A stretch of 59,776 nt of DNA, filler included, from Dugesia japonica (Eukaryota), in the NCBI GenBank assembly GCA_001938525.1. It is 4 parts of 4 records of this genome, joined end to end, with 100 filler letters (N's around TTAATTAATTAA, not from the genome) between each part and the next. Parts side by side here need not be neighbours in the genome. Positions count along the whole stretch, not along the records: positions 36,899 to 48,104 come from MQRL01497328.1; 3 more parts are not named here. One strand, written 5' to 3'. Below, one piece after another: positions 22,261 to 58,800 of this stretch (position 1 is the first letter of the stretch; each line of letters opens with the position of its first letter). The notes under the pieces were generated by a model that made no database searches, was not told where the DNA came from, and saw nothing but the letters and a program-made list of their open reading frames with translations. A program made the translations under genes and the position numbers.

Positions 22261-22519
22261 AATTCTTCAATAGTTAAAATAATTGAGTAGCTATGGAATT
22301 TGGTATAGTTATTTCAATAGTATTGTTGACGTGAAACATCCACTAAAGTGGAGATTAAACCAAAGAAAGAAATAAAACGGGAAAAGCAACCGTAAAAAAG
22401 AAATGAAGTTAAAATAAGGAAGATACAAGGAAAATAGAAACGGCTTATGACCATTAATTAAGAAAAAATTAATAAATAAAAAAGAATTATCAAGGAGAAA
22501 ATATTATAAAAATAATTAA

Positions 22520-22619
22520 NNNNNNNNNNNNNNNNNNNNNNNNNNNNNNNNNNNNNNNNNNNNTTAATTAATTAANNNNNNNNNNNNNNNNNNNNNNNNN
22601 NNNNNNNNNNNNNNNNNNN
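22520..22619. other. Artificial contig spacer
   Basis: 44 N + TTAATTAATTAA + 44 N; stops in all six frames. Confidence 0.9.
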
Positions 22620-22651
22620 AATAATTTATATATTTATTATTAATTGTTTAG

Positions 22652-23034
22652 ATACAGACGAAACGAAGAATAAAATATATTTAATATGTACAATAGAGTG
22701 TCTTAATTTCCCGTTGACACCGAAGATGTTACCTGGTCATTTAATCACAATAAGTGCCCCGTTTTCACTTGAAAATAGGCTACCGTGTGATGTTAGATTT
22801 GCAATGAAATCGGAACGTAATGACAATGGTTCGATAATTAAAAATGAAGCTCTTGTACGACCTTCGTGTCAATGTACAGTTTTAACCACTAGTATGAAAC
22901 AATCAACATATTTTTCCGTTTATCTTGATTCATTTCCTCGTTGTGATCCTTTATTGATTCATGGTAATGTCAAACTCAGCCATACAGTTTTAATACGTTT
23001 ATATGATGAACAGAATCGGCTTTTGGAATTAGAG
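22652..23034 (+). CDS. VPS13D: VPS13D internal exon (VAB/SHR-binding region)
   Basis: AG/GT bounded; PGHLITISAPFSLENRLPCDV...IRLYDEQNRLLELE resembles VPS13D PGHTIYLLP..NLLPCEL; ends phase 0. Confidence 0.85.
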
Positions 23035-23422
23035 GTAGTATTTATTATAATAAACTATATGTAAAAGTTTTATTTTATGCAAAACCAATTCCAGTATTCA
23101 AATTAATATAACATTTCAAATGATTCACGACTTTTTTGAAATCAACATTACCGCATATATCTTTTACTAATAAATTATTTTCTAAATGTACTCGTGTTTA
23201 AAAATCTTCATTTTTGGCAGTTTTTGAATATTGCGATATAAATCAATTTCATTTGTTGATTAATTTTAATATTAAAATTATATTTTTTAAATTTTCAAAT
23301 ATAAGGTGTTTCAAAAAAAACTGCGCTTTTTTACAAAATCTAAAATATTCAAAGTATCCAACAGAACTATATNNNNNNNNNNNNNNNNNNNNNNNNNNNN
23401 NNNNNNNNNNNNNNNNNNNNNN

Positions 23423-23495
<73 letters not shown>
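23423..23495. repeat. (TA)n(GA)n compound microsatellite in intron
   Basis: Direct reading. Confidence 0.95.
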
Positions 23496-23498
<3 letters not shown>

Positions 23499-23582
23499 AT
23501 TAGTTATTGTAAATATTTAAAATTCGAAGATAACTTTATTTTACTTATTTGATACTCTATTAGTCAAATTTAAATATTTCAG

Positions 23583-24081
23583 GTAAAAGTTGAATCTAGA
23601 CCATCCGGCCCGGTATCAGTTATTATTTATGCACTTTACTGGATTGTTAATCGTACATCCTTACCACTTGTTTATGCACAGTCCGGAGAAACAGATACTC
23701 TGGCAGCAGGTCATGTACCAGAAAATGAAGAGGCTTGCTCATCAATGTCATTTCCATTCAACTTTTCAAATAAGGATGATAGCTTTACTTTTCGAGTTCG
23801 ATTGGGATCGAAAGCCCAATTATCAAATCTGGATTGTTTCAAACCGTTATGGAGTGATAAAATATCTCTTGAAAAAGTAGGAACAACAACCCTTCAGTTG
23901 CGAGCTGCATCTTTGAATCAGCATCGACCGCATTTATTATATAATATTGGGCTGGAAATCAGACCTGGTAGAGGTAAACACAGCAATACTAAAATGGTAA
24001 TACTTACTGCGAGGTATTTGTTGGATAATAAAAGTTCATATCCTCTATATTTTGCCCAATACAACTGTACAGATCAACAAA
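23583..24081 (+). CDS. VPS13D: VPS13D internal exon
   Basis: IYALYWIVNRTSLPLVYAQ...AAGH...LYNIGLEIRPGRGK...ARYLLDNKSS; phase 0 start, phase 1 end, AG/GT. Confidence 0.92.
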
Positions 24082-24589
24082 GTAATTTTACTATTAATTA
24101 TTTATTGTTTTTTTGAAAGACCTAATTTCTTTTTTTTAGTATTTTTACTGTATGAGTATTGCTAATTTATTTCAATGTCTGCTTTCTCAGTAATTTTAAG
24201 GATGAAATAAAGTAGCAGTAGTTATCGAAATGCTAAAAATATTGTATTTCATTGAATTCCAAATCATTTGATCGATGGAAATGATACATTTAATTTAAAT
24301 TCTANNNNNNNNNNNNNNNNNNNNNNNNNNNNNNNNNNNNNNNNNNNNNNNNNNNNNNNNNNNNNNNNNNNNNNNNNNNNNTATTTTCGTATAAATGCTG
24401 TACAAAAACTATTTAATAGATCAATTATAAGAAAAAAACCAATTTACGTTATTGAAGTACAAGTTTTTTGATGTACAATAATTTGAACAAAGTTTTTAAA
24501 AATTATTTTTTAGCAATCTTCCCATTTGGGGCAGATACATAATATAATTATTTCTGTTATATTCTACTTATATTCTACATTATATTTAT

Positions 24590-25795
24590 TTTTTTACAAG
24601 ATACCTAATCTTTTGATATTCGCCACTAAACTGATTAACCAAAACATTACCATTTAAATGATTTCTAATAATTTCCAATGAGATGCTTGCTTGGATTGAA
24701 GCGCACCACTGAATCTTGAATTCCATTTTTTCATGACTTTATTTGTAATTCTTCGGCTAGAGTGTAATAGCATTTCCAAATATTTACTTCAAACCTTGGA
24801 GTAACTCAAATCTATTCATAATTTTGTCTTTTAGTTCCTATATAATGTCAACTTAAAAACTCAATAAAATTATTAATGGTTTAATGACAACTGTTTGAAA
24901 GCTTCAACGAAATCTTCTTCAGGTATAAATGGTAAAGTCATATATACAATAGTATATTTTATTGAAGTGTCTTCAGGACTTCTATATTGCGAAAAATATT
25001 TNCTACAGGTAAAATAAGTAGCCTTGAACTCTTCTATTTGAAAAGCAGTTTCTAATTTCGGCCATTACAGTCGATTAGAAATCAATCATTATAGATTGAA
25101 AAGAAAGTATAATACTTAATCATAATAAAATCTCTTTTAAATGAACATAGCATTTGTCTTGTGGAAACATAAACACGTGGAAAGGTGTATCCAAACATGT
25201 CAGTATAACTCATATAGATCTGAAAAAATATATTCGAACAGTGTTAAAGTCCCCTCTGCATAAAGCTTAGCACTTCGGGTTAAATGTTGCAATCCAGTGT
25301 TCGGATTAAAAATAAATATTCTATTTGAATCAGATTACTACTGAATAATATTTCAAAAATTCACCACCTGAAAAATTTCAATTATATGGTGCAGAGTTAA
25401 CACAATTGATTAAATTAGTATGAAAACTAGGTCTGGTGTTATTTTGAACTGTGCCGATGGAGTTTTAATCAATGAACTTCTTTCACTAAATTTTTAACAG
25501 CGTGTCAACTTCGCTTATATTTCTTAATTCTTCCCGTATAATGGAACTTGGGCGCGGTATTTTAATTTAACTTTTCTTTTATATTTTCAGTTGCAGGTCT
25601 AGCCATAATAAATGCGCGATGACCTGAATGAGAGTGTTTGCTGATACTAAAAACAGTTATATAATTTTCAACATCATAGTTTGTGACTAATCTGGGGTTA
25701 CATGCATCTCTATAACTATAAGTCCAATACGTTATTGTTATTTGAATTTTCTTTGAATTCAAATAGTATACAAATTCACCATTTGTAAGCATATA
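24590..25795 (-). mobile_element. Decayed Mutator-like (MULE) transposase with FLYWCH-like N-terminus, in VPS13D intron
   Basis: Minus strand FVYYLN...YWTYSYRDACNPRL...HSHSGH, then a decayed DGTF region (LYAEGT) and MIDF. Confidence 0.7.
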
Positions 25796-26123
25796 TACAC
25801 TTTGATTTAATTATATGCATTAAATTAAAATATAAATCGAATAGAATTTTATTATAATTATTTAATTTAAGTTTTATACGAAAAGTCTAGGTATGGCATA
25901 AAGTTACTTTTCAAATCAATATAAAATGTTATATNNNNNNNNNNNNNNNNNNNNNNNNNNNNNNNTGATAAGCCTAGATTTTCAAAAATTATATTGTGAC
26001 TTGGATTAAAATGATTTTTTTAGAATTAAATGTAAAATAAGTTTAAGAATGAATAAGCCAATGAATTATTCTTTATTTTATAAAACTATTGTTTTAAAAT
26101 AGGAAAATGTCTATTATTTTTAG

Positions 26124-26292
26124 CTAATCCAATTATGGCCTTGCCAGGATCTTTTCTTACATTTCATTGGCCTAGAGATGATTTGGATCAATTATTAACT
26201 GTACAAAAACTTGATTTAAACCATCAAATTATTTCCAAAGTTTCTGGGGGCTTTCAGATCGATCAATGTACTTCATTTCATGTTTATTTACG
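26124..26292 (+). CDS. VPS13D: VPS13D internal exon
   Basis: LPGSFLTFHWPRDDLDQLL...SGGFQID..SFHVYLR; phase-compatible with neighbours; an alternative in-frame acceptor lies 21 nt upstream. Confidence 0.9.
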
Positions 26293-26351
26293 GTATTATT
26301 ATTTAGTAATTTTTTTTTNNNNNNNATGTTTGAACGTTTTTTTTTCTACAG

Positions 26352-26610
26352 AGGAATCAACAGCAATCCGCCAAGTCAACTGAGAGTGTCAATAAGTCAT
26401 CGAGAGGCTAGATATAAAGTGGTTTTTACAGATGCTGAAGATTTACCATCTCCATACAAATTAGAAAATTTGACTAATTTACAGGTGTTCTTTTATCAGA
26501 ATGTAGCAGAAGACAGTTCTCGTAAATACTCTGTTCTCCCTCCATGCAGCAGTATACCGTATGCACTTGATGAGCCTACCCTTCCTCCAATTATTACTCT
26601 TTCACTAAAT
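26352..26610 (+). CDS. VPS13D: VPS13D internal exon
   Basis: LRVSISHREARYKVVFTDAEDLPSPYKLEN...PYALDEPTLPPIITL; follows a 59-nt intron. Confidence 0.92.
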
Positions 26611-28723
26611 GTAAATCACTAAATTTTGATTTAACAGTAAAAATTTCTAATTACTAATTTTTTTATTTCTCTATTTCTTTTTATTAACAATCATTGACAT
26701 AATAATATGATTATCAAAAAAAATTATGATTATAACAATTGTCAAAGTATTAAGTAAATCAATTTGTTCTGTTGACATTTAAAATAATTTTTATTCACTG
26801 AATTTAATTGAACATTATATTTTTTATCGTTCCAATAGAGTAAATATAAAATAAATATCAAAAATTTATAATTAAATAATGAAAATTTCTTTAATTTTAT
26901 TGATTATTTTGTGAGATAAAAGTAACGCGTTTAAAAAAACTATGTATTCTTTATTTATATATATATATATNNNNNNNNNNNNNNNNNTATATTCTTTATA
27001 TTATAATATTAATATTATAATATAATTAAGATTTATTTTAGAGTAGTCTCAGGCATTGTAATTTTAAAAATCATTATTTTTCTATTAGGCATGAAATTAT
27101 TTAAACACACTACAATAATCTAAAAAACCTAATTTAATTGGAATTTTCGCTATTAATTTCGTGAAGAAAATATATTTATTTTGCTATAATGTAATCAAAA
27201 CTAAATTTAGCATTCCAATTTCTATGTAATAGTTCATGTTCTTATTGATTTTTTGTTTACATCTAAGATTCATCCAATCATTCTTAATTAATTCTGTCAT
27301 ACGATTATCAACAGTACTCTTCCCCCTCATTCTCCCTCGCTCGTTCGCTCAGTTTTTATGTGCCATGTATAACTAACTATATTATTGCCTCGCAACAAGC
27401 TATTTAAAAATCAATAATATAAATATTTTAATTTAATAATTTTTCATAAAACTTTTCTATATATTTTAAAGTCATTCTTAAATAGAGATGACATCTTAGT
27501 ATTTTCATGAAAGAATTAGAAATGTTTATTATTTATCATAGCGTATGAATGAATGTTAGTGCAAATCGACGTAAAATAATATCGATGAATTTGAATTTCA
27601 TAATGATTATTAGCACGATACCATTATCTATAAAATGATGTCTAATAAATTGTAAGTTATTTTTATCCTAATTTTACTTGTCTATCTCTGTTAAACTCTA
27701 AATACTGATTTTCAGTTTGAATTGTCTAACATTTTTGATTTTTTGGTACACAAAGTTATTGAATGAATTAGATAGAAAATGAATTGTGCAAATAATTTTA
27801 GTAATTAATTAATTCGGCTGCTAATATATTTTTTGTGAAAGTTGCCATGGAAATGAAATTAATTTTATTCCCCTATTATGGCTTTGATTTAAATACTTTT
27901 TTAAAAGAACTTTTAAAAAAATATAAGCTGCAAAATGTTTTAAAACTGCTTTTATAAATTACGTTATGATTATGCATTATTATTTAAAATATTCTGTTAT
28001 TTAACACGTTGTAACCCGCAATGTTAAAATTTTTTTTCTCCCAGGACCACTATTTTTTTGTTTATATAAAATAAATAAATAAGATTTCACTATTATTTTA
28101 CTCAGCGTATTACCATAATTTGAACCAAAACTAAATAAAATAAGTAAGTGGAATTCCCAAGTATAACAAGCAACCTGTGGTACATTAAATACGATTTTCT
28201 CACGTGCTAATTAAGTATTTTTGGTCACTACGCTACCCTTGATCATCTCCTATTAGCATTTCATTGTGTTGTACTACATACANGACTCACAGAGCCCCAT
28301 TGGTAAATATTAATGTGAAACAACTTTGATTCACGTTCTAGAGAAGATAAGATGAGCATTATGAAAATAATTACTCTGCATCGTACGTGATTCACACGGC
28401 ACAACGTCTTAATTTTATCTAATATGTTAAAGATTTTAAGTAAAATAAAGTTACATTTTATCTATATCTAAATTTTAATGATTACATCTAGTATCATTAC
28501 ACAAGAGCGTACAACTATATATGTTTTCTTTTACGATTTTACCCATTATTATGGACTCACGTGAAACTATGTACTTGATTGTGTTTAATTAAACTTTTTT
28601 TAATCTCAAATCCTAATATTAATAACTAAAAAGGTTAATTTATTTATTTAATTTTAATTACTTTTGTAAAATGTTAGACACGAATGAATAAATGTGGCAG
28701 CATTTTGACAATTTTTATTACAG

Positions 28724-29134
28724 GGTGGCACTCAATGTTGTTTTGATATCAACAAAGTTGGTCGCGGTTCAAGTTTATACTATGACAATTTTCTCTATAT
28801 TGTTATTCGGAATTCAGTTGAATCTGATAATGATTCTTGCTTAGTTTTTGATGTTCCACAGAACACAAAGAAAATATTTCTCAATCAGAAAAACTCAAAT
28901 AATACTAGATCTCAATTGTGGTATTATTCAAATAATAATGAGTTATTTCATGAAGGATCAATTGCACCACATGATCCTAAACATAAACTTGATCGGTCTG
29001 CTGAAAATCATCTATTACTTGATGTTGATATTTTAGCACCATGTCCGTCGAGTTTACAAAAGAAAATGTATCGTATGATACTTGCAAAAGCAGATCCGAG
29101 ACGGGAAAAATATCAAAGATGGTTTTTTAAAGAT
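28724..29134 (+). CDS. VPS13D: VPS13D internal exon
   Basis: GGTQCCFDIN...LYYDNFLYI...SQLWYY...LFHEGSIAPHDP...YQRWFFKD; 137 codons, phase 0/0, cag acceptor and gtaagt donor. Confidence 0.92.
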
Positions 29135-29174
29135 GTAAGTTATGAGAAAATACTAAAATAAAAAATATGTAATC

Positions 29175-29918
29175 CTTATATAATTACCAAATTCACTCAC
29201 TGCCTTCAGAATGCTTCAGTTAAACAAAATATTTTAAGCTTAAAAATGTTTAAGCTTTTTTTATTTATTATTTTTAAATATTTTAAGCTTTTAAATCCTA
29301 ATTTATATGATATAAATTTTCCAGTAATCTTGACATTCTCTATGACCATTAATAAGGTACGAGGACAATAATTTGATGAAGTATTTGATGGCGTATTTGA
29401 TTGAACCAGTTTTCGCTAATGGCCAAGTCNNNNNNNNNNNNNNNNNNNNNNNNNNNNNNNNNNNNNNNNNNNNNNNNNNNNNNNNNNNNNNNNNNNNNNN
29501 NNNNNNNNNNNNNNNNNNNNACCTCACTCTGGAACGCTCGAACACAAGTAAAAAGTCAATAATAATTTATAAAGTTGTTGGAATTAACAAACTTTTATAA
29601 TATAACGGTTGATATATATTTTTGAATTAGTTTGGAGTGAAGAAATAGATCCGATTAACCGTGGATTTTTATGTGAATTACAAATACCGTTACTAAAGAT
29701 ATTTTACTCGCAATGTTGTGTATACCGAAATAATGCAGTAAATAAATGCTAACGCTTCAAACAAAAAAAATTTGCAAAATATTCTCATTTTCAGATTAAA
29801 AATTAATCCAATAATTACTGACGCCACAGTCACCCAAAAATAAACTTTAGAAGCTTAAAGTATTTTGCTTAGCTGAAGCGTTCCAGAATGAATTAGTGAG
29901 TGAATTGTGTAATTATAT
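29175..29918. mobile_element. MITE-like element with ~65-bp imperfect terminal inverted repeats
   Basis: ataattaccaaattcactcact..gcttcagttaaacaaaata..aagctt vs aagctt..tattttgcttagctgaagc..agtgagtgaattgtgtaattat. Confidence 0.65.
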
Positions 29919-30199
29919 TAATAAAAAATTATTTTATCGTTTATTACATTTAAAATGAATTCAAAATATTTTTTTATCTATATTTATTTGATGGTAAATC
30001 TGAATATCAAGTTTTAATTCTTTACTCATCTTATCTTATTATGTGAGAAATATTGAAGAGTCAACAATTTTCTAAATCACTTTTATAATCAATAAATTTA
30101 AACCCAAAAATTTTAATTTATAAATAAGGCTGAAAATTATTTTTAATTTTAAGTCTCAAGAAATTATTTTACTAGTCATGATTTAATTAATTTAATGTT

Positions 30200-31620
30200 T
30201 TATTCTGAACCAAACAAATCTATCTATTAGATGAGTTTCAAGTACTCATCGGATAATTAATATCCAAACTCGTTTCCATAAAAGATTTATTCATAAAACA
30301 AAACTATATCCATTATTATTTGTTGATTCAAACAAATTAAAACTCCATGCTTTAATTGGAAATCATTTTTCAATAAATTTAAAATTTTAGATTAAATTTT
30401 CATTTAAAATAATTTCGAAAATTTAAACAACATAATCATTTTTCATTAAAATATCATTTAAAATATTCCCAATATTTTAAAACCAAATAATTATTTGCTG
30501 TTAAAATATCATTTAAAATTGTTTCAAAATTTTAAAACAAAATTGTCATTTCTAAAAATCCACAATAAATTGTGTATAAAAATATTTCAATTAATTCTTA
30601 AACTATTCATAATTTTTGTACAAAAAATTTAATTTGATTTACATTAATTTTTTAATTAATTTCTCAATTTCAATTTTTAAAAAAAAAAGATTTTAAGAAA
30701 ACGATTTCCTACTAAAGCACAAAAATTTCAACTCGCTTTTCAAAACATACTCACACTACCATTTGCTAAGATTACAATTAACTCAAAAATTGATTTTATT
30801 ATATGCGTTAAAAAATATGTTTAATTTCAACATCCAATCTTCTTTTAAAAAAAGTAATTATCTACTATTAATTTTCTACCAATATTTTAAGCAAAAATAA
30901 GCATTCAAATCAATATAAGTTTATTCACTAAGATTTCATTGATTTTAATAATTTTAAATTTTAATGGAGACTTAAATTAAATTGAAAGTTGCTTGTTGTT
31001 TAATATCATTGATCTTTAAAATAAATTAAAGTAAATTAATTATATTATATTAGCTAAACATATTTGAAACTTTTATAATCTTTAGTTATAATTGTTAGAT
31101 AAGTTTGGAAAACTCATCTGATCATTTATATATTATCAGGACTCGAATTCACTACAAAATTTATTCAAACAAAACTATGCTAAACACTATTTGTTTATGC
31201 AAACAACTTAAAATCCTGTATTTTCATTGGTGATCATTTTTTTTAAATTTTAAAACGAAACTTTAATTTATTTAAAATTGATTTAATTTCATTATTTGAA
31301 ACATTTAATTTATTTATTTAAAATTTAAAACAAAATTTTCGTTTATGTTTAAAAATTTTACTTTATCTTTAAAATCGAAACTTTTATTTATTTAAGATTA
31401 ATTTAATTTCATTATTTAAAAACATTTTATTTATTTATTTAATTAGTCAAATTTCCGTTTACTCAAAAATTTTAATTTATCATTAAACCAAATATTTGTT
31501 ATTTAAATTTTTCATCAATAATTTAAATCTTTCTTTTAAACAAAAGATTTTAAAAATATGATCACCAATCACACAAAAATTTCAACTCGCTTTACAAAAC
31601 ACTCACAATAATGTTATTAA
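30200..31620. repeat. Diverged ~870-bp-period direct repeat in intron
   Basis: actcatc..tttattca..caaaactat near 30244 and 31112; cacaaaaatttcaactcgcttt near 30718 and 31572. Confidence 0.65.
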
Positions 31621-32322
31621 ATTTATCTTTCGATTAACAAGTTTCATTATAAGAAAGTTAGTCAAATAATATATATTTATTACTCGATAGATGAATAAGA
31701 TGCATTTGTAATACCTTTTAATACTTTAGAGGCGATATATTGACTTTTTATTTTAAAAACAATTATAACTTATGCTATAACAGTTAATTTTAATAAAATA
31801 AATTTTTGTAATAGGATATGTAATTCTACTGAATAGGAATATTCATGTTTAAACCTATTTCGCCTCAGATATGTGTACATACAAGAATTCTAGGTACCGA
31901 TCTTCACACTTGATCTTCACTTGTTTGATATGAAATTACTGTAAATGTAATTGAGTAGTTTTGTGGAAATTGGATAAAATTCAAAAATCTTAGTCCATAA
32001 CCATTGCCAGTTCCTAAATAAGATGCATTCAAAAATTTCTGAGCGAAAAGAGAAGAATTTTGTTGTCTATAGAGCAAAACCACACATATATTGATCAAGA
32101 ATATCATGCTCTAAGTACAATAAAAGGGTGCATGGAGGGTACATGGTCATTCGCGTAAAAAGTCTCCTTACTAACTAAATTATATTTTATCAATTTATTC
32201 TGTCACATAATTATGTATTATTTTGCAAATAAATGTATGTTTGGCATTTTTTATCGTATATTTTGTGTACATGCTTATTTTAAAATCGATTAAAATTATT
32301 CTTGTCTTTTTAAGTTAAAGAA

Positions 32323-32790
32323 AATGGAGGAAAAATTGCTATTAGAGTCTTAATTAGATTTAATTTGAAAAAGGGACTAAGTGCACGAAAATTAGTATAC
32401 GTCGAATATCAGATAATCTTGGGGCTTCAAAATCATTCATACTTGGGAAAGTGAACAGAAGCTGTCAAATTTTACCACATGATCTCATTTCTGCACCACT
32501 TTTGTGTGTGGAAGTCATGGTAAACTGCTTACCAATTCCCATGATGACTGTTTCTATAAACGAATTGTCATCTAAGATGAAAAATGGATCATGTACCACA
32601 ATTCTGATTTGAGAAAGCAATGGTTGGACCCAGGTCAGTAGGCAGAACTTGTTTTCAAACCAAAACGGTTTGGACAAAAAATTGTTTTATGTTCTTGGTG
32701 GAACTATAAGAGTTTGCTGCACTTCGAATTAGTTTCAGGTGGACGTGGATTTACGGCTAATCTTTATTCTAACAATTTCCAAAAGTCATT
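32323..32790 (+). mobile_element. Mariner transposase fragment
   Basis: MEEKIAIRVLIRFNLKKG, PHDL, DEKWIMYHN, LCSWWNYKSLLHFEL. Confidence 0.85.
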
Positions 32791-32829
32791 TTGTTAATAT
32801 GTGTGTGTATATATATATATATATATTGG

Positions 32830-32949
32830 ACAAAATTCTAAATTCCCAAAATAAAAAATTTTCAACTAAATTTCTATGAATAAAAATGTCTGCCTGAAAT
32901 AAAATATCTCCTCAGGTTGGGTGAGCTGGAGTGCCACTATGTAACTACT
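32830..32949. mobile_element. Putative Polinton terminus fragment
   Basis: Ends gccactat-gtaa-ctact, the reverse complement of AGTAG-N4-ATAGTGGC, shared with three other sites in the window. Confidence 0.5.
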
Positions 32950-33660
32950 ATAGATCCTTATGGATTGTATTTTGAATATTAGTTATGTGTGTNNNNNNNN
33001 NNNNNNNNNNNNNNNNNNNNNNNNNNNNNNNNNNNNNNNNNNNNNNNNNNNNNNNNNNNNNNNNNNNTGTTTTCATTTCGAAATATAAAAATGGTACAGA
33101 AGTGAAAATTTATCTACAGTAAAATAAGTTTTTGTAACGTTAATTAAAAGCTTCAGTTGGAATTTTTTTCTTTCCCTTGTATAAAATTACATATATTTTA
33201 AAATACAAAGAACCTGAAATATTTTCATTTTTAAGAAAAATATGTTAATTTTAAAAGTCGTGCAAATTGCATATCTTCCTAGGTATTTATGGCGGGTACA
33301 TTAAAAAACTTTTAAAGTACTAATAGGGATAATATTTAATTTTGCTTGAATAAAGTAAATGTTATTCACATGCAATTGAATTTAATCGAATATGATTAAA
33401 AACTTTCATTCTCATTCAGAGAATTAAATTAATAATAATGTTATCTAGCATAGTAAATAAAATGAGTACATCATAAATTCATCGATTCTGCAATGTGCTA
33501 AATTAATTCGGAATATTTTATNNNNNNNNNNNNNNNNNNNNNNNAAAAAAAATCAATTATTAATTCATATAATATAATTAAATTGGATAGTTGGTGTTCA
33601 ATTCTTTTCTTTCTAATGTTAAAAATAAAGTTTTTCCTATTTTCATTATTTATCATTTAG

Positions 33661-34233
33661 AATGGCTGTTTAACAAATAAACTTGGTATCCAATGTTATA
33701 TCAAGGCTAATTGTAAAAATGCGGCCGTGTTCGGCGGATTCGAATGTTTAGAATCATATTATTCTCCATTTGTATATAAAGATTGGTTTAGACCTGGATC
33801 TGGAGAAGTATTAGTTTCTGTAATCACAGATGGGCCTACTCGTGTTTTACGTTTGATTGATAAAAATGATAAATTTCATAGATCACAATCATTGGAAAAT
33901 ACCAACAATGAGGATTTATTGAAATGTCCTTATTTTGAAATACAACTTAGTATAAAAGGATTCGGTGTATTTTTGATTAATCACATACCAGAAGAACTCT
34001 TGTATGCTGTATGTAATAATATTGAAATTATATGTCGACGAAAAAAGCGTAAAGATTACTTCCTCGTCAGAATGGGACAAATTCAAGTTGACAATCAACA
34101 AATGAATACGGGTTATCCTTGTGTGATGTATGAAGAAAATATACCTCACATTGATTCGCATAATGCTTTCTCCTTGGAATTTGAACGAGAATTAGGTCAT
34201 CAATATGATATACTTGTGTTCAATTATATAATG
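33661..34233 (+). CDS. VPS13D: VPS13D internal exon
   Basis: FRPGSGEVLVSVITDGPTRVLRL...PEELLYA...IQVDNQ; 191 codons, phase 0/0. Confidence 0.93.
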
Positions 34234-34283
34234 GTTTTTAAAGTCATTATTTATAATTTCATTATTATTCCTAATATTTATAG

Positions 34284-34575
34284 ATGCACATTTCACCAAT
34301 GTGTATAATTCTTGAGGAGAAAATGCTACTCAAAACGATACAGATGTTTTGGTCTCCATCAAAAAAGATGGAACTTTCGGAGGAAGATTTTAATAGTTTA
34401 CAAAATCATTCTCATTTTCATGAGGGTCGAAAAATATATATTGGAAAATTAACATTGATAACTGGTAATATTAGTCTTTCAGTGATTACAGCGGAATCAC
34501 TTCCATTTGATTTAAAACAAATGAAAAAATTATTCCCTTCATTAATGAGTTTTACAAATGCACAAATTATAATAC
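34284..34575 (+). CDS. VPS13D: VPS13D internal exon (start of C-terminal region); later exons not found in window
   Basis: After a 50-nt intron; ILEEKMLLK...ISLSVITAESLPFDLK; donor gtaagt at 34576. Confidence 0.9.
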
Positions 34576-34953
34576 GTAAGTTTCCCATAATTGTATTGAT
34601 TATCGATTCTATTAATTAATACTTTCCTGTCTTTTATAATAACAAACTTGTGTTAAAAGATTAATGTTTGGTTAAGAATTTAAAATCTAGCATCTTTGCT
34701 TAAACTCCATTGCTGCTTCTTATTGAAGCAGCCATTATTTACATTTGAACATTTTTTTATAAGTTATAATAAAAATGTTTGCTTATAGATTCCAACAATA
34801 ACAAATTGTGAAAATGAATGCCATAAATTATTTGATAAATTATTTTTAGAGAACATTTAAACATCTTTTATTTTTAATTGATACAGTTTAAAATTATTTA
34901 ACCGCTGANNNNNNNNNNNNNNNNNNNNNNAACTTGTATTTATTTTTATAATA

Positions 34954-36293
34954 TTGGGGGTCTTATTTGAAAATTACCGAAAAATATAAAACAAATAGTT
35001 ATAGAAAATTAACGTAGTTTGGATAATACGAATTAACGTTATAATTTTTAATGAATAAATATTCTATTTAGTTATCGTTTAATTATGAGAGATTACAAGG
35101 ATATTGTAACTCAGATGAAAATGTCTTTTTATTACAGATAACAAATACTTCAATGTAAATCATTATGTAATTTCTATCTGATTGCACAACCATTCACCAT
35201 CTTTCAACCAAACTTTGAATACCCTCTTTGTAAAATGATGATGATTATTCAGCAAAAATCTGTTCCGCTTATATAGCATCAATGTTTGAGAATGATTTTC
35301 CTGACAAAAAAATGGACAATGATCGACTCTAATAATAGTCAGATGGCGCACAATCGAGGAAATAGGGAGAATGTTGCATGAGCTTCATTTCAAGTCATGT
35401 AACTTTTGTATAGTCTTTTTTGTTGCATATGGTTTGGCGTTGTCTTGGTGAAATATCATCAGTTCTTTGTGGACTAATGCTNGTCGCCCAACTTTGAGAA
35501 CGGCCGCAAAAACGAATTAATTGTTCGCACTTAATTGATTATATTAATGTACTCTTTAACATTTCTAGATGAGTTATTACCATGTTGAACCACCTTATAC
35601 ACAATAGATCCTTCTTCAGGTGAAACCCTGACTTGAACGAAGGTCTTGGATATAAACATTAATTTTTTCTGTTAAGGTTTTTATACAACACTTATTTATA
35701 ATCTACAGTCACTATTCGCTTCCAAAAACCCTCAAATTCATGGCGAAATTAATTAAAACCGAGAGACGCATTTCTTTCTGGATCGGTGTAAATTCATGAG
35801 GCAGCCAAATACCAGTTCCCCAGACTTTACCACTCAGATGGAAAATTTATTTGAACAGTTGACCAACTAATACCAAGAGTGATTGTCCTTTCTTTGATGG
35901 TCAATATCGGATCTTATTCAACCAACTTTCTTAGAGCGTAATTATCCAAAACATTTTAACGATCAGGTCTTCGAAGATCTTCAAAAGATGTTTTAGGTTC
36001 CCTGGACCGTTTAAATCAATTTATAGCCTGTCTATCGCTAATGGCATTTCCATAAATTGTACAAATCCTTTTGAGAACTTATATCGCTTTAGAACCACAA
36101 TCACATTCGTATAAAATACTCTGTCGGATATGTTCTTTATCATCTACGAATTTAGTCAACTTATAACACTATGGTAAAAAAATTTTAATGGTTTTAATAA
36201 CATTTTTATACATATAAATATATTTCCTTTAAAAATCTAAACAAGAATCAGTTACATATTAGCTAAACGGAAATTTTCGAATAATACTCCCAT
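34954..36293 (-). mobile_element. Full-length decayed mariner element (~1.34 kb)
   Basis: TA-flanked imperfect TIRs (ttgggggtcttatttgaaaattaccg / cggaaattttcgaataatactcccat); minus strand WLPHEFT, FHQDNAKPY and a YSPDLAP-like motif (PYFLDCAPSDYY). Confidence 0.9.
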
Positions 36294-36898: not shown

Positions 36899-36965
36899 AT
36901 ATTTTCCACTTTATTTTCCCCTTACTCTCCAGAATATTTTATTATTATTAAAATGTGTTCTAACC

Positions 36966-37000
<35 letters not shown>

Positions 37001-37001
<1 letters not shown>

Positions 37002-37405
37002 GTGTCCCACCTGAGTTAAGCGGAAAAGTTGGTGGCTGGGGAAAAACAGCCCTCAAGGAGACCCGTTCAAGAATTTGAAAGCTTTCAATCGCCAGTGCAC
37101 GTCAAAGGACTACAAAATTTTGGACGCATTAATCCGAATCCTAATGTTGTTGACGGTGTTGTCATAGATGACCTGCCGCTTACGAATTTTTCTACAAACG
37201 AACTTCTAGGAATTCTCGATGTCTGTTACGAGAATCCCATAAATATCAAGTATAGTACAGGGTATTACCAGCTTTTTGTCCGCGAAAAATTTGTTTGAAC
37301 GATTCATCACAATTATTCTCAAAAAACGTGAAAACTCCAATTTTAAAAGCTATATACAGACGAATAATTATACATAATTTTAATGAGAAACTTTATGATA
37401 AATTT
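37001..37405 (+). pseudogene. SF3 helicase domain resembling CRESS-DNA virus Rep (putative endogenous viral element), two frameshifts
   Basis: Joined reading: Walker A-like GKVGGWGKT (37022-37048); Walker B DGVVIDD; B'-like LLGILDVCYENPINIKYST; motif C LPAFCPRKICLN; arginine-finger-like KAIYRR. Confidence 0.72.
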
Positions 37406-37879
37406 ATTGTAATTGCATCATTACAGACGGAGAAGCAGACTTCCTACAAGCCGAGAGTTGGTCTAAACGTAGGCACTGGTATTGTCCAGTCGGTCACTCA
37501 GAAGATGAGCGAGATATATGGGCCGCACTTGAACTACATCGGTGGATCTCACAGTGCTACTGCGGATCGAAAGTAAAAATGAGTAGTTTCCACAAGGAAT
37601 CTTGTTACAAATTCTTCATGATATACTGCGACTTATTTTTTGTTGGCTTTTAATTTTAGTAATAATTTTTTTAACTGGTTTCATTTATATTACGACTTAT
37701 TTCATCTTGTTAACTCATAAAAATGGTTATTTAAATTTTTCCAGTAATGTCATTTTATGAAGATCTTACGAGATTTTGTTTTCAATTTATTTCTGGGGCT
37801 AATTTCATTATTAATAATAGCCATTATAACGCGATTATTAATAGTTATGAAATACATAATATGGTATTCGATAACGGCA

Positions 37880-38032
37880 TTAATTCGATTTGTGTGAAAG
37901 GAATTTTGAATACGCATAATCACTATTCTGTTTTCAGTCAGTATAAAGCTGCTCTCGTTGAATTATTTAATCGAACATTAAGAACAAAGCTTGCAAATAT
38001 TTCACTTATCGCGGTAATAAAGTTTGGATAAG
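37880..38032 (+). pseudogene. Polinton-type retroviral-like integrase fragment
   Basis: [25 protein letters not shown], frameshift, [11 protein letters not shown]; resembles the Polinton KAxxVERFNRTLK..KYFT..W motif. Confidence 0.75.
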
Positions 38033-38486
38033 ACGAAATAGAGGTGATGTTTGTATTTCTATTCTTCACACAACAGGCGATGATCCACAAAGAGGAGAAT
38101 TGCCTTCAGAACGGTGGAATCCTACACAAAACGTCAGAAATATTCTGCTCAGTGTTATTTCCATGTTGAATGAACCGAATATCAATTCAGCCGCGCACGT
38201 GGACGCATCCGTTTCATTCAGAAAATGGCAAGAATCCAATGGAAACGAGAAAAGTTATGAATGCATGGTTAGGCATCTTGTATTTTTGACTAAGGCTGAT
38301 GCTGAAAAAGATAAAGTTTAAGTCCTGACGACACTTGCAGAGTATTGTGGATCAGGAGGTACAAATAATCGAACTTCTGAATTGAGTAATCCGTGTGATT
38401 ATAATGATTATCTTACACCGGATTACGACGATGACGATGATNATGACGATGATGACTTTGAAGAGTTGTATGATGATACAGAATAA
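38033..38486 (+). pseudogene. CDC34: 5'-truncated intronless copy of CDC34/UBE2R ubiquitin-conjugating E2
   Basis: [46 protein letters not shown] (catalytic Cys and acidic loop); in-frame TAA at 38319-38321 inside KV*VLTTLAEYC; acidic tail ends with stop at 38484-38486. Confidence 0.88.
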
Positions 38487-38699
38487 TAGCAACAGTTGAA
38501 AAGAATTTCGTAGTCATTGCTGATTGATTGATTAATTGTGTCTCTGTGTGTGTATAATTGACTGATATTGCCTTATTTAGTGTTGCTTTATTGTTGCTGT
38601 TTCATTATTATTATCTATAATAATAATAATCATTATTATTGTACAAAGCAGACTTTCACAAACTAGAAATGTAGCACGAAAAATCTGGGGAAAATTTAG

Positions 38700-41600
38700 T
38701 GCATTTAGAATATTTGTCTCTGGATTAGCAGGAATTTATGCTATTTGTGTAATTGTGAAAGTGACATTCACTCAATTGTTATCTACATATAGTATATTTA
38801 AAATAGGTGGATGCACGTGGAGACTAATCATTGGGTTGTTTCCATTCTTAGCCAAATTTTTATTGTTCAAACATCACGACGAGATAAAGGTTAAAAATGA
38901 GACAAGGAACAGTAAAGCATACTGTGGTGCGTTTGCAACCGGATAAAAATGACCAATGAAGCGATGACGATGATAATCATAGGGTTGAAACGGCGGCCGA
39001 TGTAACAGTAATGATAATTATTATGGTCGTACCGACAAAAGTGATAATGATGAAAATTTTGATAAGGATATACCTACTAAACATGTATAGATGAAGATGG
39101 ATTTCCAAGATTTTGGAGTAAAGCTAAGAAAAAGACAATGGTAATTCTCAATAATAAACAGAAGAGGCGAGAGGGTATCCTAACTAACTGGGACGGAAAA
39201 ATGAAATATACAGGTCGTGGACCGTATAACTCACTAATCAGTACTATATTCAACCCACTATTGAAAGCAAGTGCTCCAACTGAAAGTTCAATGTTACCGC
39301 CACCAATGTATCCAACTTGAGAATTAGATGAACTAAGAGAACAGATAGATAACTGGGATTTGGAGAAAATCATAGAATATGTGAACAATAAACCAAGATC
39401 TCGAGGTTTAGTAAGCACTATATTTGAAAGACGAACGGGACAAAAATTGCCAGCAAACTATACTCAAGAAGATTTGGCAAAAGGATTTCNNNNNNNNNNN
39501 NNNNNNNNNNNNNNNNNNNNNNNNNNNNNNNNNNNNNNNNNNNNNNNNNNNNNNNNNNNNNNNNNNNNNNNNNNNNNNNNNTTACAAGAAAGAAATGGTA
39601 TGAATAATCAAACAGAACCAAATTTTAATACACAAAGAGAAAACATGTTAGGGATTTCAACATTAATGTCAACTTTTATGGTAAATGTAGAATATGCCCA
39701 CAAGCCAACAATTAAAATCAGAATTAATCGACATGTAGTCTACGCTATGATAGATTCTGGATCAGACAGAGCAATAGTAGAAGCCAATCTACTGAAAAAA
39801 TCAGAAACTGAAAATGTTAATTAAGAACAATAAGACAATACTGCAGCAAATGGAGAAAAATTAGATATCATAGGATATCTAGATTGTAATATAAAATTAT
39901 GTGACCAAGATATAAAACATGAAATAAAAGTCGTGAGGATGTATTATGTATGGATGTATTAAAAAAGCTCAAAGATGTGGTTTTTGATTGCGCCACAGGA
40001 CAACGGGTAAAGTTAACTAGAAAGCGTAAAAAGGAATACAATGAACACTTGGCTTATATCGATAGACAGATCACGATACCTCCTATGGTAAAAACTGTAT
40101 GTACTATCAATACTACACTCAAGCAGAATGGAGAAGTACTGTTTGAGTCAAATCCTCTGTTAATGGAAAGATATTGTATACCTAGAACCTATAGCATCAG
40201 CCAGGTTAGAGAGGGTAGAATTTCAATAAAATTGAGAAATTTAGACATTAGACGGATTACATTGTTTCCAGATACAAATATGAAAGTTATTTATGTACCA
40301 GATGATGAAATAATTGAGAAATCTTCAACATTATCTGTCATAGAGCAACGAGATCCAGATATCGAATACTATGATGCACCGTGTGCGATAGTAAAATTTT
40401 AACTAGAAAAGAAAATATTCTCATAAATATGTTGCTAAGAAAATTTGATCATATTTTCGCTAAACACGAATNTGATCTTGGAATAACAAATATCTTGGAG
40501 CATGAAATTGTGCTCACAACGGATAAACCAATCAAGTTGAGACCGTATCTAATTCCTGAGAAATTGGAAGCAAACGTAGAAAATCAAGTTAAACTGATGT
40601 TAAAATAAAAAATTATCAGTCACCATTCCAATCCCCATTAATAAAATGGCTAAATAATTAATGGCTAAAAAAGATGGAACAGTATGATTATGCAATGATT
40701 ATCGTAAATTAAACAAAGTGACAGTCAAGGAGAGTCATCCTTTACCATTATTGGAAAGGATATTCGATAAATTGAGAAAACCATTATATTACTTCGTAGG
40801 AGATGCACAAAAAGGATTTTATCAAATCGGATGCACTGAGGAAACTAAAAGAATAATAACATAAAGAGTATAATGTTATGCCATTTAGACTCACAGGAGC
40901 TCCGGTGACATTTCAAAGAACCGTGAATAAAATCCTAGAAGATGTACCATTTGCAATGGTATACATTGACGACATATATAATATCTCGGAAAGGAATAAG
41001 ACCTGATCCAGCAAATATAATAAAAGTACAAAAATCTCCTCAACCAAAGAATCCAAAACAATTAGAATTAGCAGGATATTATAGAAATATTATAGTTAAA
41101 TTTGTATGGGGAACTTTACAGTAAAAAGCGTTCGAGACGCTCAAAAATCTATGCCAGTAATAAAGGAGTTGGGGCTGTGTTAGGCCAACTCGATGAAAAC
41201 GGTAATGAATGTGCTATAGCTTATACAAGTAGAGGGCTGAAGTTTTAACTAGTAAAATTATGCTGTAATAGAGTTAGAGACTTTAGCAGTAATATTCGCG
41301 ATTGATAAATATAGACATTATCTTTGGGGTAGAAAGATAATAATCTACACCGACCATAAGCCATTAAAATGGTTGATGAAGCATAAGAAAATTCATCTAG
41401 ATTAATTAGATGGGGATTGAAATTACAGCCATATGATATATATATAATTTACAGAAAAGGAAAAGAGAACTCAAATTCAGATGCATTATCAAGAATGGAT
41501 CAGGATGATGAGCTTGAGGATATTAAAGAAGGAAGATTAGAAGGAACATATTTGCAGATCTTAAAATGTTAAACAACCAAGCCGATGTGATCAAGTAGCA

Positions 41601-44600
41601 AATCGAGAACGAGGAAATTAATCAAATAAAACAGGTTCTAGAAACTGGAATGGTACCAGTTGAATTTGAAAAGTTTTGGTCAAAGAACCACGGAAAATTC
41701 TTTTTAGAAGATGGATTAGTGAAATATCAGGAAGCAACTGATAATGTTTTCATGGTACCAAAAACTCTTAGAGATGCTTTGATGTTACAATATCATGATG
41801 GGCAATTGGGAGGACATCTCTTAGCCAAGAAAACAATTTCTAGACTAAGGCAGAAATAGTTTTGACCGGAAATTCGTCAGGACGTAAAGAAATGGTGTCA
41901 AACATATAAAGTTTGTGCTACCAGACGAAATAAAGGAGCCAAAACAAGGGTACTATTGAAACCAATGCCAGTTCCAACATCACCAATGGAAATTCTAGCG
42001 ATGGATGTGTTGGGACTATTTAAACCTACAAATGATGGAAATGAGTTTATATTAGTAGCCTGTGATTATCTCACAAAATGGCCTGAAGCTTTTCTGATGC
42101 CGGATCATGGCTAGAATCTTTGTGGAACAGATAGTCTTTCGATATGGAGTACCAAGAAAGTTGCTAACCGATAAAGGAAAAGATTTCATGAGTAATTTAT
42201 TAAAAGGAATAAATGAGTATTTTGGAATATTAAAATTGAATACATCTCCATATCATCCTCAGACGGATCGATTAGTCGAAATATTAAATTGAACATTAGC
42301 TCAAATGCTATCATCATATGTCAATTCTGAGCAAACGGAATAGGACATTACATTCCCACATGCTTGTTCGCGTATCGGAACGCAGTACATTCAAGTACAG
42401 GTTATTTGCCGTTTTATTTAATGTATTTGAGAAATAGCAACATGCCGGTGAATCTTGTATTTCAAACATCATTATCGCAGTACTTTGATGAGGGCAATTA
42501 TCTGCTCGAACTAAAAGATAGGATACAAATAGCTTGGTTAAAAGCTAACTTAAGTATTAAATATTCACAAGAAGGAATGAAAGAGGCATATGATAAAAAG
42601 ACTAAACCGCACGAGTTTAGAGTGCAAGATTTATTAATGCTCGAAGGGCATAATAATATAAAAGATTTGTCACCAAAGTTGGTACGATACTACATGGGAC
42701 CTTGTAAGGTATTAATAAAAACAGAAACTAATTTAGTCTTACACCTATACTATTACATGCAAATAGATGCAAAAAATATTATACGAAAGATGTGCAAGTT
42801 AAAAATATAGCGACAAAAGTCAAGGACAAGGCAAAAAGGTCTTCAACAAACACTCAAGAATCTAACAATAGATATCCACTAANNNNNNNNNNNNNNNNNC
42901 AAACATTAATGATTATTGCAATAATAAGTTGTCTTAATATGGTCAGTGCACAGATTGAATTTCAACCCAAAGCAGTACCAATGGAGAAAATAATATTACG
43001 AAGATGGTTCCATAAATTCTCTATAAGATCAACGGTCGAATCGACATTCAACTACCACATAGCGTTTATTTCTGATGGAACAGAAACATATTACAAGATA
43101 GGACATAGAAACAGAGAGGTCAATATCACAAATTTAAAGGCTAACTATACCTATGCTATGCAGTGTTGGTATCAGCAATTCAAATCTGTATATTGGGAGA
43201 CTGTAAGAACCACCGGATGGTATCTTACAACATTGCCAATAAACAAAGTAGTAATATTGTACAAAAATTCATGTCTATTTTTCACAAATGTACATACAGA
43301 GCAGGAGGAAACACAAATCGAGCTTCACTACGGAACATGAAATTCTACAATTCGTTTGAACAAAAAAGTTAATGTCGGGAGATGGTTTTTTGGATATAAA
43401 AAGAAAGATGCATAAACAGCCACATATCTGGTATTCTCTGAAGAAATACAACCAAGCAAGGTTATGATTAGTACGGTTACTAAGAGACCAATTTCCACAA
43501 AATTAAATGCAAACTTCTTGGGAATGGTAACCCCCGTTTACTTGGAAAAACATACCACCTTGGAGATCATCAATGGAGATGGCAGGGAGAGGAAAATAGG
43601 TTTCCAATGCATCAAATTTACAGCAATTATTGCTGTGGAGGTCTTATATTTTGAAAAACCAGTCATTAGGTTAGGCTATGAATGAGCTCACATGGACTTA
43701 TAATGCCAATTTTAATGACATAAAAACACAGAAATCATTTGTGCGTATGTCTCTCACCCTACAACAAGAAAATCGTGTAACGTGTTTTGTGGCTTTTCAC
43801 TATGTTACACTCAAAGAAAATTTAGAATCAGCTAGTTTCAGCCAACGTGCTTAATTTTGACCGTGAACAATGGAAGTACTTGAAGACTCAAAAATCGTGG
43901 GAAATGATGATGAGCTAGGAGACCCTCCTAGTATATCATTACAGTAAGTTGACGAATCTATACAGTAAATAGAAATTTCCCAGGTACCAGAAAAAGAAAT
44001 AGTACCAGAAAAGGAAATATAAAAAGATTCAGGGAAGTTCATTGATAAATTATATCCGAGATGAAGAAACTTCAAATGGCGGCATTAGCCTTACCGGAAA
44101 ATGATAATACTTCATTTTACAGCGAATTTAATGACTTGGACGATTATAAGATTAACGCTTATTGGAAGAAAGAAACTATTTGCGAAGCGCAGTTCAAAGG
44201 AAAAGAAGCTTCAATCCAAGAAATCCTCAAATGATGCTATGATCAGCTCTCCTCAACATCTTGAACACGAGCATGTAGTGCTGTGATCCGTTCGAGCAAT
44301 CTAATGGTCACGGATGAACAATAGACATTTATTTTTTTGTGATTCGATTGTATTTTATTTTATGTGATTCAAACTCTGACATTAGTGCTATTTACAAATA
44401 ATGTATTTTACTAGTTTATTTATTTTTCTGTTTTATTATGTTTCTTTAAAATGTTATAAATTTTCAGTACGAAAATCTTTTAGGGGGGAATATTTGTGAT
44501 GACTGGGAACAGTTTTAGTATAATTAAGTATTCAAGATTAAAATTAAATAATTTTAATATTTTTTGTTTAAAATTATAATGCAATACGATATTAATAAAT

Positions 44601-48317: not shown

Positions 48318-48345
48318 ACAATATGTTGTGCAATTGGTACATGTT

Positions 48346-48728
48346 ATGAAGTAAGTGTTTTTATATTAATGATTTTTTTTAATAGTACTATTCAGATTGA
48401 TCGGATTGTATCAGAGTGGCTTGGATCAGAATGGTTAGGTGTTTATGCGTTAGATAAACTTCCAAAATATATTCCAGTAAAAAATGCCTTAATTGTCAAT
48501 ACTCATACATCAAATCTAGGTGGAGAACATTGGATAGCTGTTTACAACAAACTTGTTCAAATATTGGTATTCGATCCATTAGCATTTTATTATCCATCAA
48601 TTTCGGTATCACACTTATCGAAAATATCAAAGCCAATAGTCTACAATAAAATTCGATATCAAGATACATTTACAACTACATGCGGTCAACATTGTTTATT
48701 ATGGTTGAAAAAACAACATCGTACTTGA
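48346..48728 (+). CDS. Polinton adenain-type (C5-like) cysteine protease, intact; probable 35-nt intron 48351-48385
   Basis: LGVYALDKLP, IVNT, GEHW, VFDPL, YQ....TCGQHC. Spliced start ATG AA|T gives MNTIQID; the unspliced alternative starts at 48369. Confidence 0.88.
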
Positions 48729-50746: not shown

Positions 50747-50969
50747 TAAGTCAACACAATAAAATTATAATCCATGCATTAAAATTACTTTACAACAACA
50801 TTAAATTTCTTAGTTATAACATTTAAACTCTGATCAACAAGTGAACATATAATTTGTCACACTAAAAATATATTTCGTCACATTGAAATTTCTAAGTAAA
50901 CGGTTTAAACTTATAATCTATATCACAAAATTCTAATTTGATTCATAAAAATTAACACTGAACAAGTAA

Positions 50970-51049
50970 ATTTCTTCAACCACCTTCACTTTAATATACA
51001 ATAAAGTATCATTCAAATCCAAATATTCTGTTTGAGATCCATTTATAAA
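50970..51049 (-). pseudogene. N-terminal fragment of Polinton major capsid protein
   Basis: FINGSQTEYLDLNDTLLYIKVKVV resembles the capsid F.I.G....Y.DL..T.LY.K motif. Confidence 0.72.
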
Positions 51050-51689
51050 NNNNNNNNNNNNNNNNNNNNNNNNNNNNNNNNNNNNNNNNNNNNNNNNNNN
51101 NNNNNNNNNNNNNNNNNNNNNNNNNNNNNNNNNNNNNNNNNNNNNNNNNNNNNNNNNNNNNNNNNNNNNNNNNNNNNNNNNNNNNNNNNNNNNNNATATT
51201 GTTCCATGGCCTCTCATTCGTTTGTTTATACGTGATCCATGAGATTTCTTACGTTTTCTACTATTTTGATTAAATTAATGTCAAAACACAGATGTTTACA
51301 AATATGAAGTCTTTCAAATATCTGATCTGATAATCGAATATTGAATTGAAATAATATGCGATGTTGGGTTCATGCTGTATTGAATTATGTGATGTGTTAT
51401 GCTTTGTTTTTTATTTATTGTATTTACAATTCTCAACATTTTCTATGATATTAGATGTTCCCCTTGACAATATTAATGTTAATATTAATGTTAATGTTTA
51501 CATCCCCGAGCAATATTAATATTAATGTTTAAGTTAATATTGACGTTAACATCCACCTGGAAATAATAATGATCATATCAATGGAAATGTTAACATTTCA
51601 AGGGTTATACCAATGTCCATATTCCCTGACCAATATTATAATCATGTGATCGCCCAACAATATAAGTATTTACTGTTTTGTCCCTCTCT

Positions 51690-57630: not shown

Positions 57631-58221
57631 TTTACAAAGTTCGCACCTGAGATAATGTAAGCCTCCTGACTCAGACAGCGCATATCCCTTTACTCATAAT
57701 AATTATTAAATTTTTTAGTGGCAAGTTTTTTGTAGAATTTCAAAATTTTAATTTTCAATTAAATTTTTTTAAGACATAAGAAACAAAAAAGGTGTTTGAT
57801 CTGATTATATTTTCTTTGTATTACTTTTTGACATTTTGACATTTCATTGATTTTAGTATGTTAGTTAATATGTACTAAAAAGTATTCATTTTAAGCGCAA
57901 ATACAAAAATTATAATATTAAAGTTGTGCTAAATGACTTGTTTAAAACAATAGGTTTTAAAAACTAACTTCAGGGCATACTTATTTTAAAAAAGTGGAGA
58001 AAAGCCTAACACTGTCTCTTGATGCAAAGTAACTTAATCTTAGGTTATTTGGAAAGTAACTTTGGTTCTTTTTTGTTGAAGCTTTAGTCTTAATTTAAAG
58101 CATCAAAGACACATTTAATTTATAAAATCAATACAAACTACAACAATTTACATATCTAGTTTGATTTATTTGTAAATTTTTTATAATTTATCAAAATAGC
58201 TTTTTAGGTAGGATATTTGAA

Positions 58222-58800
58222 ATGGCTGACCAAAAATTGTATTTTCTGCATGTTCTATTTTCTTATTACCAAAAGAGTATAAATAATGCACATTCCAGAA
58301 GAAAATTATGTGCAATGTATGGAGAAAAATCGAACGCCGATCTCAAACCGTGTTCTCTAGGTTTCGTTCGGGAAATTTCGACCTTCAAAATGAACAGGGT
58401 TCTGAAAGGCTAGTCAAAGCTGATGCTGACAAGCTGATGACTTTGCTTAAAGAAAACCAGCATCAAACAACCATAGAAATAGAATAGACATAAAATATGC
58501 TTAATTCAACTTTGATTATGTTGCAATTTCCAATGTCTTTATTCCATAATTTTTCACAGAAAGGAATCTAATTCATTGGGTTGAAATCTGAGAATCGCCG
58601 CTGAAACGTGTAAAAAACTGGCCAATCTTGATAAGAACCAAAACGGACAATGAAATGTGGATAATCTACTACAGCCACAAGCGGTAATGTAACATGAGAC
58701 ATGAATCCCTTCAAAGCATACCAAAAACATGTATCCGTGCAAAGAAAATGATGCTCTTTGTCTGGTAGTACTGGTTTACTGTTATGAACTGGAAACATCT
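58222..58800 (+). mobile_element. Mariner transposase fragment
   Basis: MADQKLYFLHVLFSYYQK...LCAMYGE, RFRSGNFDL, DNEMWIIY, KMMLFVW. Confidence 0.85.

Follow-up and report, generated by a model that had tools for sequence, protein, structure and literature searches.

The locus and its surroundings

The window, by which we mean the whole stretch of 59,776 nucleotides analysed here, is animal DNA with an overall GC content of 27.8% and with frequent gaps. Its positions 37083-37576 encode the C-terminal portion of a Rep of the CRESS type, which contains a single frameshift near 37262 and no internal stop. This Rep piece is preceded by a truncated copy of a host repeat and followed by non-coding DNA that includes a stem-loop, and all of it is set among host genes and decayed mobile elements (Table 1).

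Table 1. Positions of the features found at the Rep locus and elsewhere in the window
Feature	Position	Strand	Remarks
Polinton/adintovirus-like gene pieces	21334-22132 (-), 37917-38034, 48318-48728 (+), 50933-51274 (-)	as bracketed	
Further RT piece	7104-7550	-	
VPS13D-like host gene exons	22576-34576	+	VPS13_VAB matches; 84% identity to P0018
Truncated copy of a very high-copy interspersed repeat without assigned family	36998-37076		contig depth, loose ends
Rep SF3 helicase, first piece (just past Walker A to B')	37083-37262	+	63% identity to P0001 over 60 aa; stop-free
Rep SF3 helicase, second piece (downstream of the frameshift, with motif C and arginine finger)	37262-37400	+	51% identity to P0001 over 45 aa; stop-free
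Rep C-terminal tail including stop codon	37401-37576	+	homology to P0001 until 37534, to P0002 until 37525
Second, overlapping Cys/His/Trp-rich frame (candidate)	37402-37653	+	83 codons, stop to stop
Non-coding 3' portion of the element	37577-37916		37730-37912 in several diverged copies
Stem-loop resembling a rolling-circle origin	37802-37853	+ (Rep-coding strand)	9-nt loop 37822-37830; 246 nt past the Rep stop
Cdc34/UBE2R-like ubiquitin-conjugating enzyme sequence	38035-38600	+	UQ_con E 1.2e-11; in-frame stop
Decayed Gypsy-type LTR retrotransposon	39321-43700	+	protease, RT and integrase pieces; long extra frame after pol

The last recognised exon of the VPS13D-like gene stops at a GT near 34576, and none is recognised beyond it. 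The Rep fragment may lie inside a large intron of this gene. On the other side, the RNA reads that fall on the Cdc34-like sequence contain no joints and carry many fixed differences, and for these reasons the sequence is likely a processed pseudogene whose parent gene lies elsewhere. Among the Polinton/adintovirus-like pieces, the protease has a Peptidase_C5 match (E 3e-4), and the others resemble genes of this kind. The stretch 37917-37997 is also a second very high-copy repeat. Two short frames, at 35385-35516 (minus strand) and 58165-58487 (plus strand), resemble mariner transposase remnants; the first of them has no Pfam match.

A truncated SF3 helicase

A profile built from 15 related Reps was searched against the 2572 six-frame pieces of the window and matched only two of them, 37020-37295 (E 1.1e-18) and 37256-37573 (E 2.2e-10), with the next best piece at E 0.9. 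When the middle piece (37065-37277) was used as a phmmer query against 1.84 billion proteins, eight matches were obtained at E<=0.001, the best being P0001 (1.7e-18). All eight are Rep-like, five of them with Viral_Rep or Gemini_AL1_M, and in every alignment the first query residue is at least residue 6. TBLASTN of these eight on the window finds one frame starting at a position of at least 37083 (8/8) and a second one from about 37262 (5/8). Pfam, PHROGs and PDB sequence searches with the window pieces alone gave nothing relevant; a word-indexed search with the first Rep piece found none of 17 candidates, and the leads from an Atlas query with a window piece all scored below 0.8.

Four of the motifs named in the preliminary description, judged by the SF3 definitions in PMC5923481, are indeed present: Walker B VVIDD (37158-37172), B' LD..ENPINIKY (37215-37253), motif C KICLN (37286-37300), and AIYRR (37349-37363), which contains the arginine finger. 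These four follow one another in SF3 order, as had been claimed; the spacing of the proposed Walker A is wrong. The motif-bearing pieces are spread over the three plus-strand frames. Of the two frameshifts counted earlier, one falls inside the Rep homology, near 37262, and the first was not confirmed. Over its whole length, the second Rep frame is 46% identical to P0001 (81 aa).

The reported GC content above that of the flanks holds, with 39.8% over 37001-37580 versus 27.8% for the window, and part of this excess is due to the repeat, whose GC content is 50.6%. The helicase core (37077-37400) is at 34.3%, and 37077-37576, at 38.4%, belongs to the top 0.7% among 1041 sliding windows. The HUH endonuclease half was correctly described as absent: none of the 2572 window pieces matches one, and the relatives have one.

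A Walker A look-alike within a high-copy repeat

GKVGGWGKT, the motif first put forward as the Walker A of this Rep, maps to 37022-37048. Its GKT ending and its place directly before the helicase homology are what one would see in the Rep's own diverged Walker A if a frameshift had set it apart, but this reading is hardly credible. The motif is unscored by the 15-relative profile at E<=50, and BLASTP gives no alignment of it to P0001 at E<=100. Its spacer comprises five residues, versus GxxxxGK[TS] in 15/15 relatives. In all 15 relatives, too, a hydrophobic strand precedes the Walker A and six residues (18 nt) lead from it to a conserved H-F/G, whereas in the window the distance from GKVGGWGKT to the conserved F codon is 34 nt.

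The motif sits within the repeat that ends at 37076, only a few bases from the start of the Rep homology. In the first bin, summed contig depth reaches 19,896-28,039 in three of three DNA runs, against 0-10 for the helicase core; summed contig depth is not copy number, and the contrast between repeat and Rep is thousands-fold. A single variant at 37056 is shared by 87-101 contigs. Loose ends past 37076, seen in 4/4 runs, indicate that other copies of the repeat continue into sequence that is not Rep. An Rfam search of the repeat matches only (AT)n artefacts, and its fold is unremarkable (z -0.02). Diverged copies of the repeat also turn up in a few RNA reads.

The 5' side of the Rep is cut off by the repeat, with the loss of the Walker A and of the whole HUH domain. 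Since the supposed Walker A lies outside the Rep, the helicase is truncated and not merely frameshifted, and because Walker A and nuclease are both missing, the remnant cannot act as a helicase or as an initiator.

Relatives of the fragment

The closest relatives of the fragment, at 40-63% identity and with its helicase signature in common, are P0001, P0002, P0003, and P0008, four unnamed Reps on Logan/ENA contigs of 2.1-4.3 kb. That they are unnamed agrees with the unclassified lineage proposed in the preliminary description. The C-terminal tail is common to the fragment, P0001, and P0002. Unlike the fragment, which has neither, the four Reps are whole or nearly whole, with an HUH domain and a true GxxxxGKT. 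P0001 has no plasmid match.

Trees were built on about 105 residues of the fragment, with midpoint rooting and with rows other than family reference Reps. In these, the fragment groups with P0001 and P0002 (support 100/96), and nine rows (the fragment, P0001, P0002, P0003, P0008, L005, L004, P0004, and P0005) form a clade with support of 98/96 among 55 rows and of 96/97 among 43 rows, the smaller set being the larger one minus one long row and 11 near-duplicates. L001, which gave a single 10-residue match in the first scan of viral contigs, was taken as chance and excluded from the trees.

Comparisons made with the relatives point to CRESS Reps. In the Atlas, P0002 matches Cressdnaviricota Rep clusters at 0.97, with a Parvo_NS1 cluster only at rank 16. 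An alignment of 31 relatives matches the PCV2 Rep in the PDB (E 2.8e-22), and the fold matches of the P0002 model (pLDDT 84.7) are led by the PCV2 Rep in the PDB and by CRESS Reps in BFVD, where the PEVE type 2 Rep stands at rank 6 (E 9.5e-19). Profile, phmmer, and the Atlas and fold matches of the relatives thus bear out the assignment to a Cressdnaviricota-type Rep helicase remnant. CRESS Reps rank first, and the best match is not to a Polinton, parvovirus or non-SF3 protein, the identifications that had been named as competing with this one, nor to a papillomavirus E1 helicase.

P0001 carries a 17-residue insert in its HUH domain (at about 106-123), P0002 begins at the matching site, and the Rep of L005 (3548-4944) is split across two frames at the position that matches the insert. 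The coincidence of these three suggests, from sequence comparison, that the Rep of the fragment's lineage contains a spliceosomal intron. P0004 joins a Rep helicase piece belonging to this clade directly to a piece of PIF1-like helicase (E 2.9e-8), and is probably a further endogenous copy in decay, next to a Helitron-like element.

Comparison with PEVE, PIVE and small CRESS viruses

A scan of viral contigs with the four closest Reps found one locus, L005, which is 5699 nt long and has 243-nt terminal inverted repeats. The inverted repeat of L005 is also present in L043 (1911 nt, from the same record series), which encodes a Parvo_NS1/PPV_E1_C helicase. A pattern scan for the inverted repeat found eight loci, L005 and L043 among them; the others, in the range L039-L042 and L044-L046, are single matches. 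According to Liu et al. 2011 (PMC3198968), PEVE, a virus-like element of planarians, has a large segment with the Rep and a small, parvovirus-like segment, and is reported as non-integrated. The L005/L043 pair matches this architecture, and we infer that L005 is PEVE type 1. That paper also places PIVE_3p, a Rep integrated in Schmidtea, among the PEVE large-segment Reps, treats PIVE as an integrated repeat in Repbase, and argues that integrated Reps may self-propagate. PEVE is still unclassified.

L005 belongs to the same helicase clade as the fragment but is only 27-31% identical to the window Rep pieces; the Reps of L005 and P0001 are 26% identical over 287 columns. L005 and L043 have the long terminal inverted repeats and were negative for a nonamer hairpin, whereas in the window element the hairpin is present and no inverted repeats were found. 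L043 has no match to 37401-37920. Like the fragment, PIVE has an integrated Rep of the PEVE group, in its case in a planarian genome; as described, PIVE also has a parvovirus-like NS gene, and none is seen adjoining the fragment. The unclassified CRESS DNA viruses of about 2 kb (L002, L003, L006-L038) share the ALxHF..P helicase type, many of them have a nonamer hairpin, and L002 and L003 have a capsid-like gene. These viruses fall outside the clade of the fragment, with a 100/99 branch between, and are about 21-36% identical over the longer matches.

The fragment is an endogenous Rep remnant related to PEVE and PIVE, from an unnamed sub-lineage. In the open literature, bioRxiv supplements excepted, no publication was found on this sub-lineage, nor on planarian CRESS fossils beyond Liu et al. 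2011. The preliminary description saw in the fragment a fossil linking a viral lineage to this host. The integrated fossil stands; the link itself is probably not new, as a PEVE-like Rep lies in the clade and an integrated PEVE-like Rep, PIVE_3p, was already known in Schmidtea.

The origin-like hairpin and the overlapping frame

In the replication of CRESS DNA viruses, Rep nicks a nonamer in the loop of a hairpin and unwinds the DNA by means of its SF3 helicase. The stem-loop past the Rep stop has a loop that differs by one mismatch from NANTATTAC. Its DNA fold has an energy of -10.1 kcal/mol (z -2.7), and none of 200 shuffles folds as well; four of 2000 shuffles of 37577-37916 yield a comparable nonamer hairpin. 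Applied to the whole window, the nonamer hairpin test gives four matches, and the exact 9-nt loop is found only at 37802-37853. The plain nonamer count for the window does not stand out from chance (10 vs 7.3 expected); only the hairpin test is informative for the nonamer, and the hairpin was spotted post hoc. A looser form of the test is positive for 19 of 38 Rep-related loci and negative for L005 and L043. In the literature, a search for nonamers of this kind turned up only matches unrelated to viruses. The hairpin is likely an origin of replication.

The Cys/His/Trp-rich frame overlaps the end of the Rep. Relative to a diverged copy, with nine differences listed, the changed codons are silent in 4/7 cases in this frame and in 1/6 cases in the Rep frame. 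This is suggestive, at most, of a second gene, and no homologue of the frame was found, viral contigs included.

Integration, copies and transcription

Contigs and reads of four runs, three of DNA and one of RNA, were compared with 36998-38800. Among the runs listed, 20 contain part of the stretch and four contain at least half of its words, under one organism code; X1 may be the source sample. An X1 contig (37035-37402) spans both the repeat-Rep junction and the frameshift without a difference, and an X3 contig (37039-37264), from another sample and another study, spans the junction, again without a difference. Since the junction between host repeat and Rep is identical in DNA runs from two studies, integration, as first proposed, is supported.

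These contigs also bear on whether the Rep piece belongs to an unintegrated virus or to a contaminant and reached the scaffold through a wrong join. Gaps surround the site in the scaffold, the helicase core is absent from X5 (no contig over 37181-37302, with an exact contig at 37444-37785), and the right junction is not formally bridged, being spanned by only 29-30 letters, below the threshold of 31. A mis-join is nevertheless very improbable, given that the same repeat-Rep junction recurs in two studies about ten years apart, that the exact X1 contig contains the frameshift, and that the depth matches neighbouring unique DNA; furthermore, a live virus would not have a frameshift and a missing Walker A.

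Part of the non-coding DNA past the Rep is present more than once. Depth at 37730-37912 is 35-120, versus about 6-11 immediately upstream, a difference of about ten times. One X3 contig aligns to 37507-37613 and to 37746-37884 with 259 other letters between, and the same joint occurs in X1 and X5. In 3/3 DNA runs the Rep end is present in a diverged version (18-22 other letters per 107-132) that is joined, through different sequence, to 37746 onward. That the 3' end and the hairpin region exist in several diverged copies might be expected under the main rival reading, a decayed, capsid-less mobile element that was driven by Rep through rolling-circle replication, spread in the host genome, and relied on the hairpin to signal replication or termination. 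It would fit such an element that no capsid is seen, that PIVE is an integrated repeat in Repbase for whose kind self-propagation has been argued (Liu et al., PMC3198968), and that in the relative P0004 a Rep piece is fused to a PIF1 piece. We nonetheless regard a mobile element as unlikely. The copies are few, with the hairpin region at about ten times single-copy depth and the helicase core in single copy, and relatives further removed have 2-kb genomes that include a capsid-like gene. There is also no target-site duplication and no terminal or inverted repeat in 36900-38040; this copy is truncated, and the result says little about the parent.

In the oligo-dT RNA run X22, of which about 25% was read, 37120-37424 has zero reads and 37425-37546 has a depth below 2.5. 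No RNA dataset is among the runs listed for the stretch.

Proposed history and significance

Together, these results favour a dead fragment of a CRESS-type Rep, accompanied by a likely origin hairpin and integrated in an animal genome, a reading to which we assign a probability of about 0.8. The host is likely a planarian, judging by its low GC content, its repeats, the 84% match of the VPS13D-like gene to P0018, and the kinship of the fragment to PEVE. The parent of this remnant would have been a small ssDNA virus, or a virus-like replicon of the host, that replicated in the nucleus, its Rep nicking the hairpin loop and its SF3 helicase unwinding the DNA. We can only infer a parent that formed virions, because a search of the window revealed neither capsid nor HUH sequence. 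A piece of genome covering the end of the Rep and the origin would then have entered the germ line, probably by end-joining, either more than once or in a single entry with later copying, and the repeat would subsequently have replaced or deleted the 5' part of the Rep.

A more far-reaching possibility, which we hold to be doubtful, is that the fragment and P0001-P0003 represent an undescribed family of planarian circular ssDNA viruses whose Rep is spliced and whose genome combines a hairpin origin with an overlapping Cys/His gene. By joining a parvovirus-like segment, this lineage would have given rise to the linear genome of PEVE, with its two helicases and flanking inverted repeats. If this were true, a transition from a circular to a linear genome could be traced in a laboratory model animal.

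For most CRESS DNA viruses the host is not known. Endogenous copies are a main route by which hosts are assigned to CRESS viruses, and animals commonly carry endogenous Reps. Should the host be a planarian, the fossil ties P0001-P0003 and P0008 to flatworms and to PEVE, and it hints that the lineage had rolling-circle genomes with a hairpin origin besides the linear form of PEVE. The gain is modest: the fragment is short, broken, and silent, and an endogenous Rep has already been reported in Schmidtea. What is new is the origin-like hairpin, together with the presence in three DNA runs of diverged copies of the 3' region. The locus also provides a case in which a host repeat is able to mimic a convincing Walker A.
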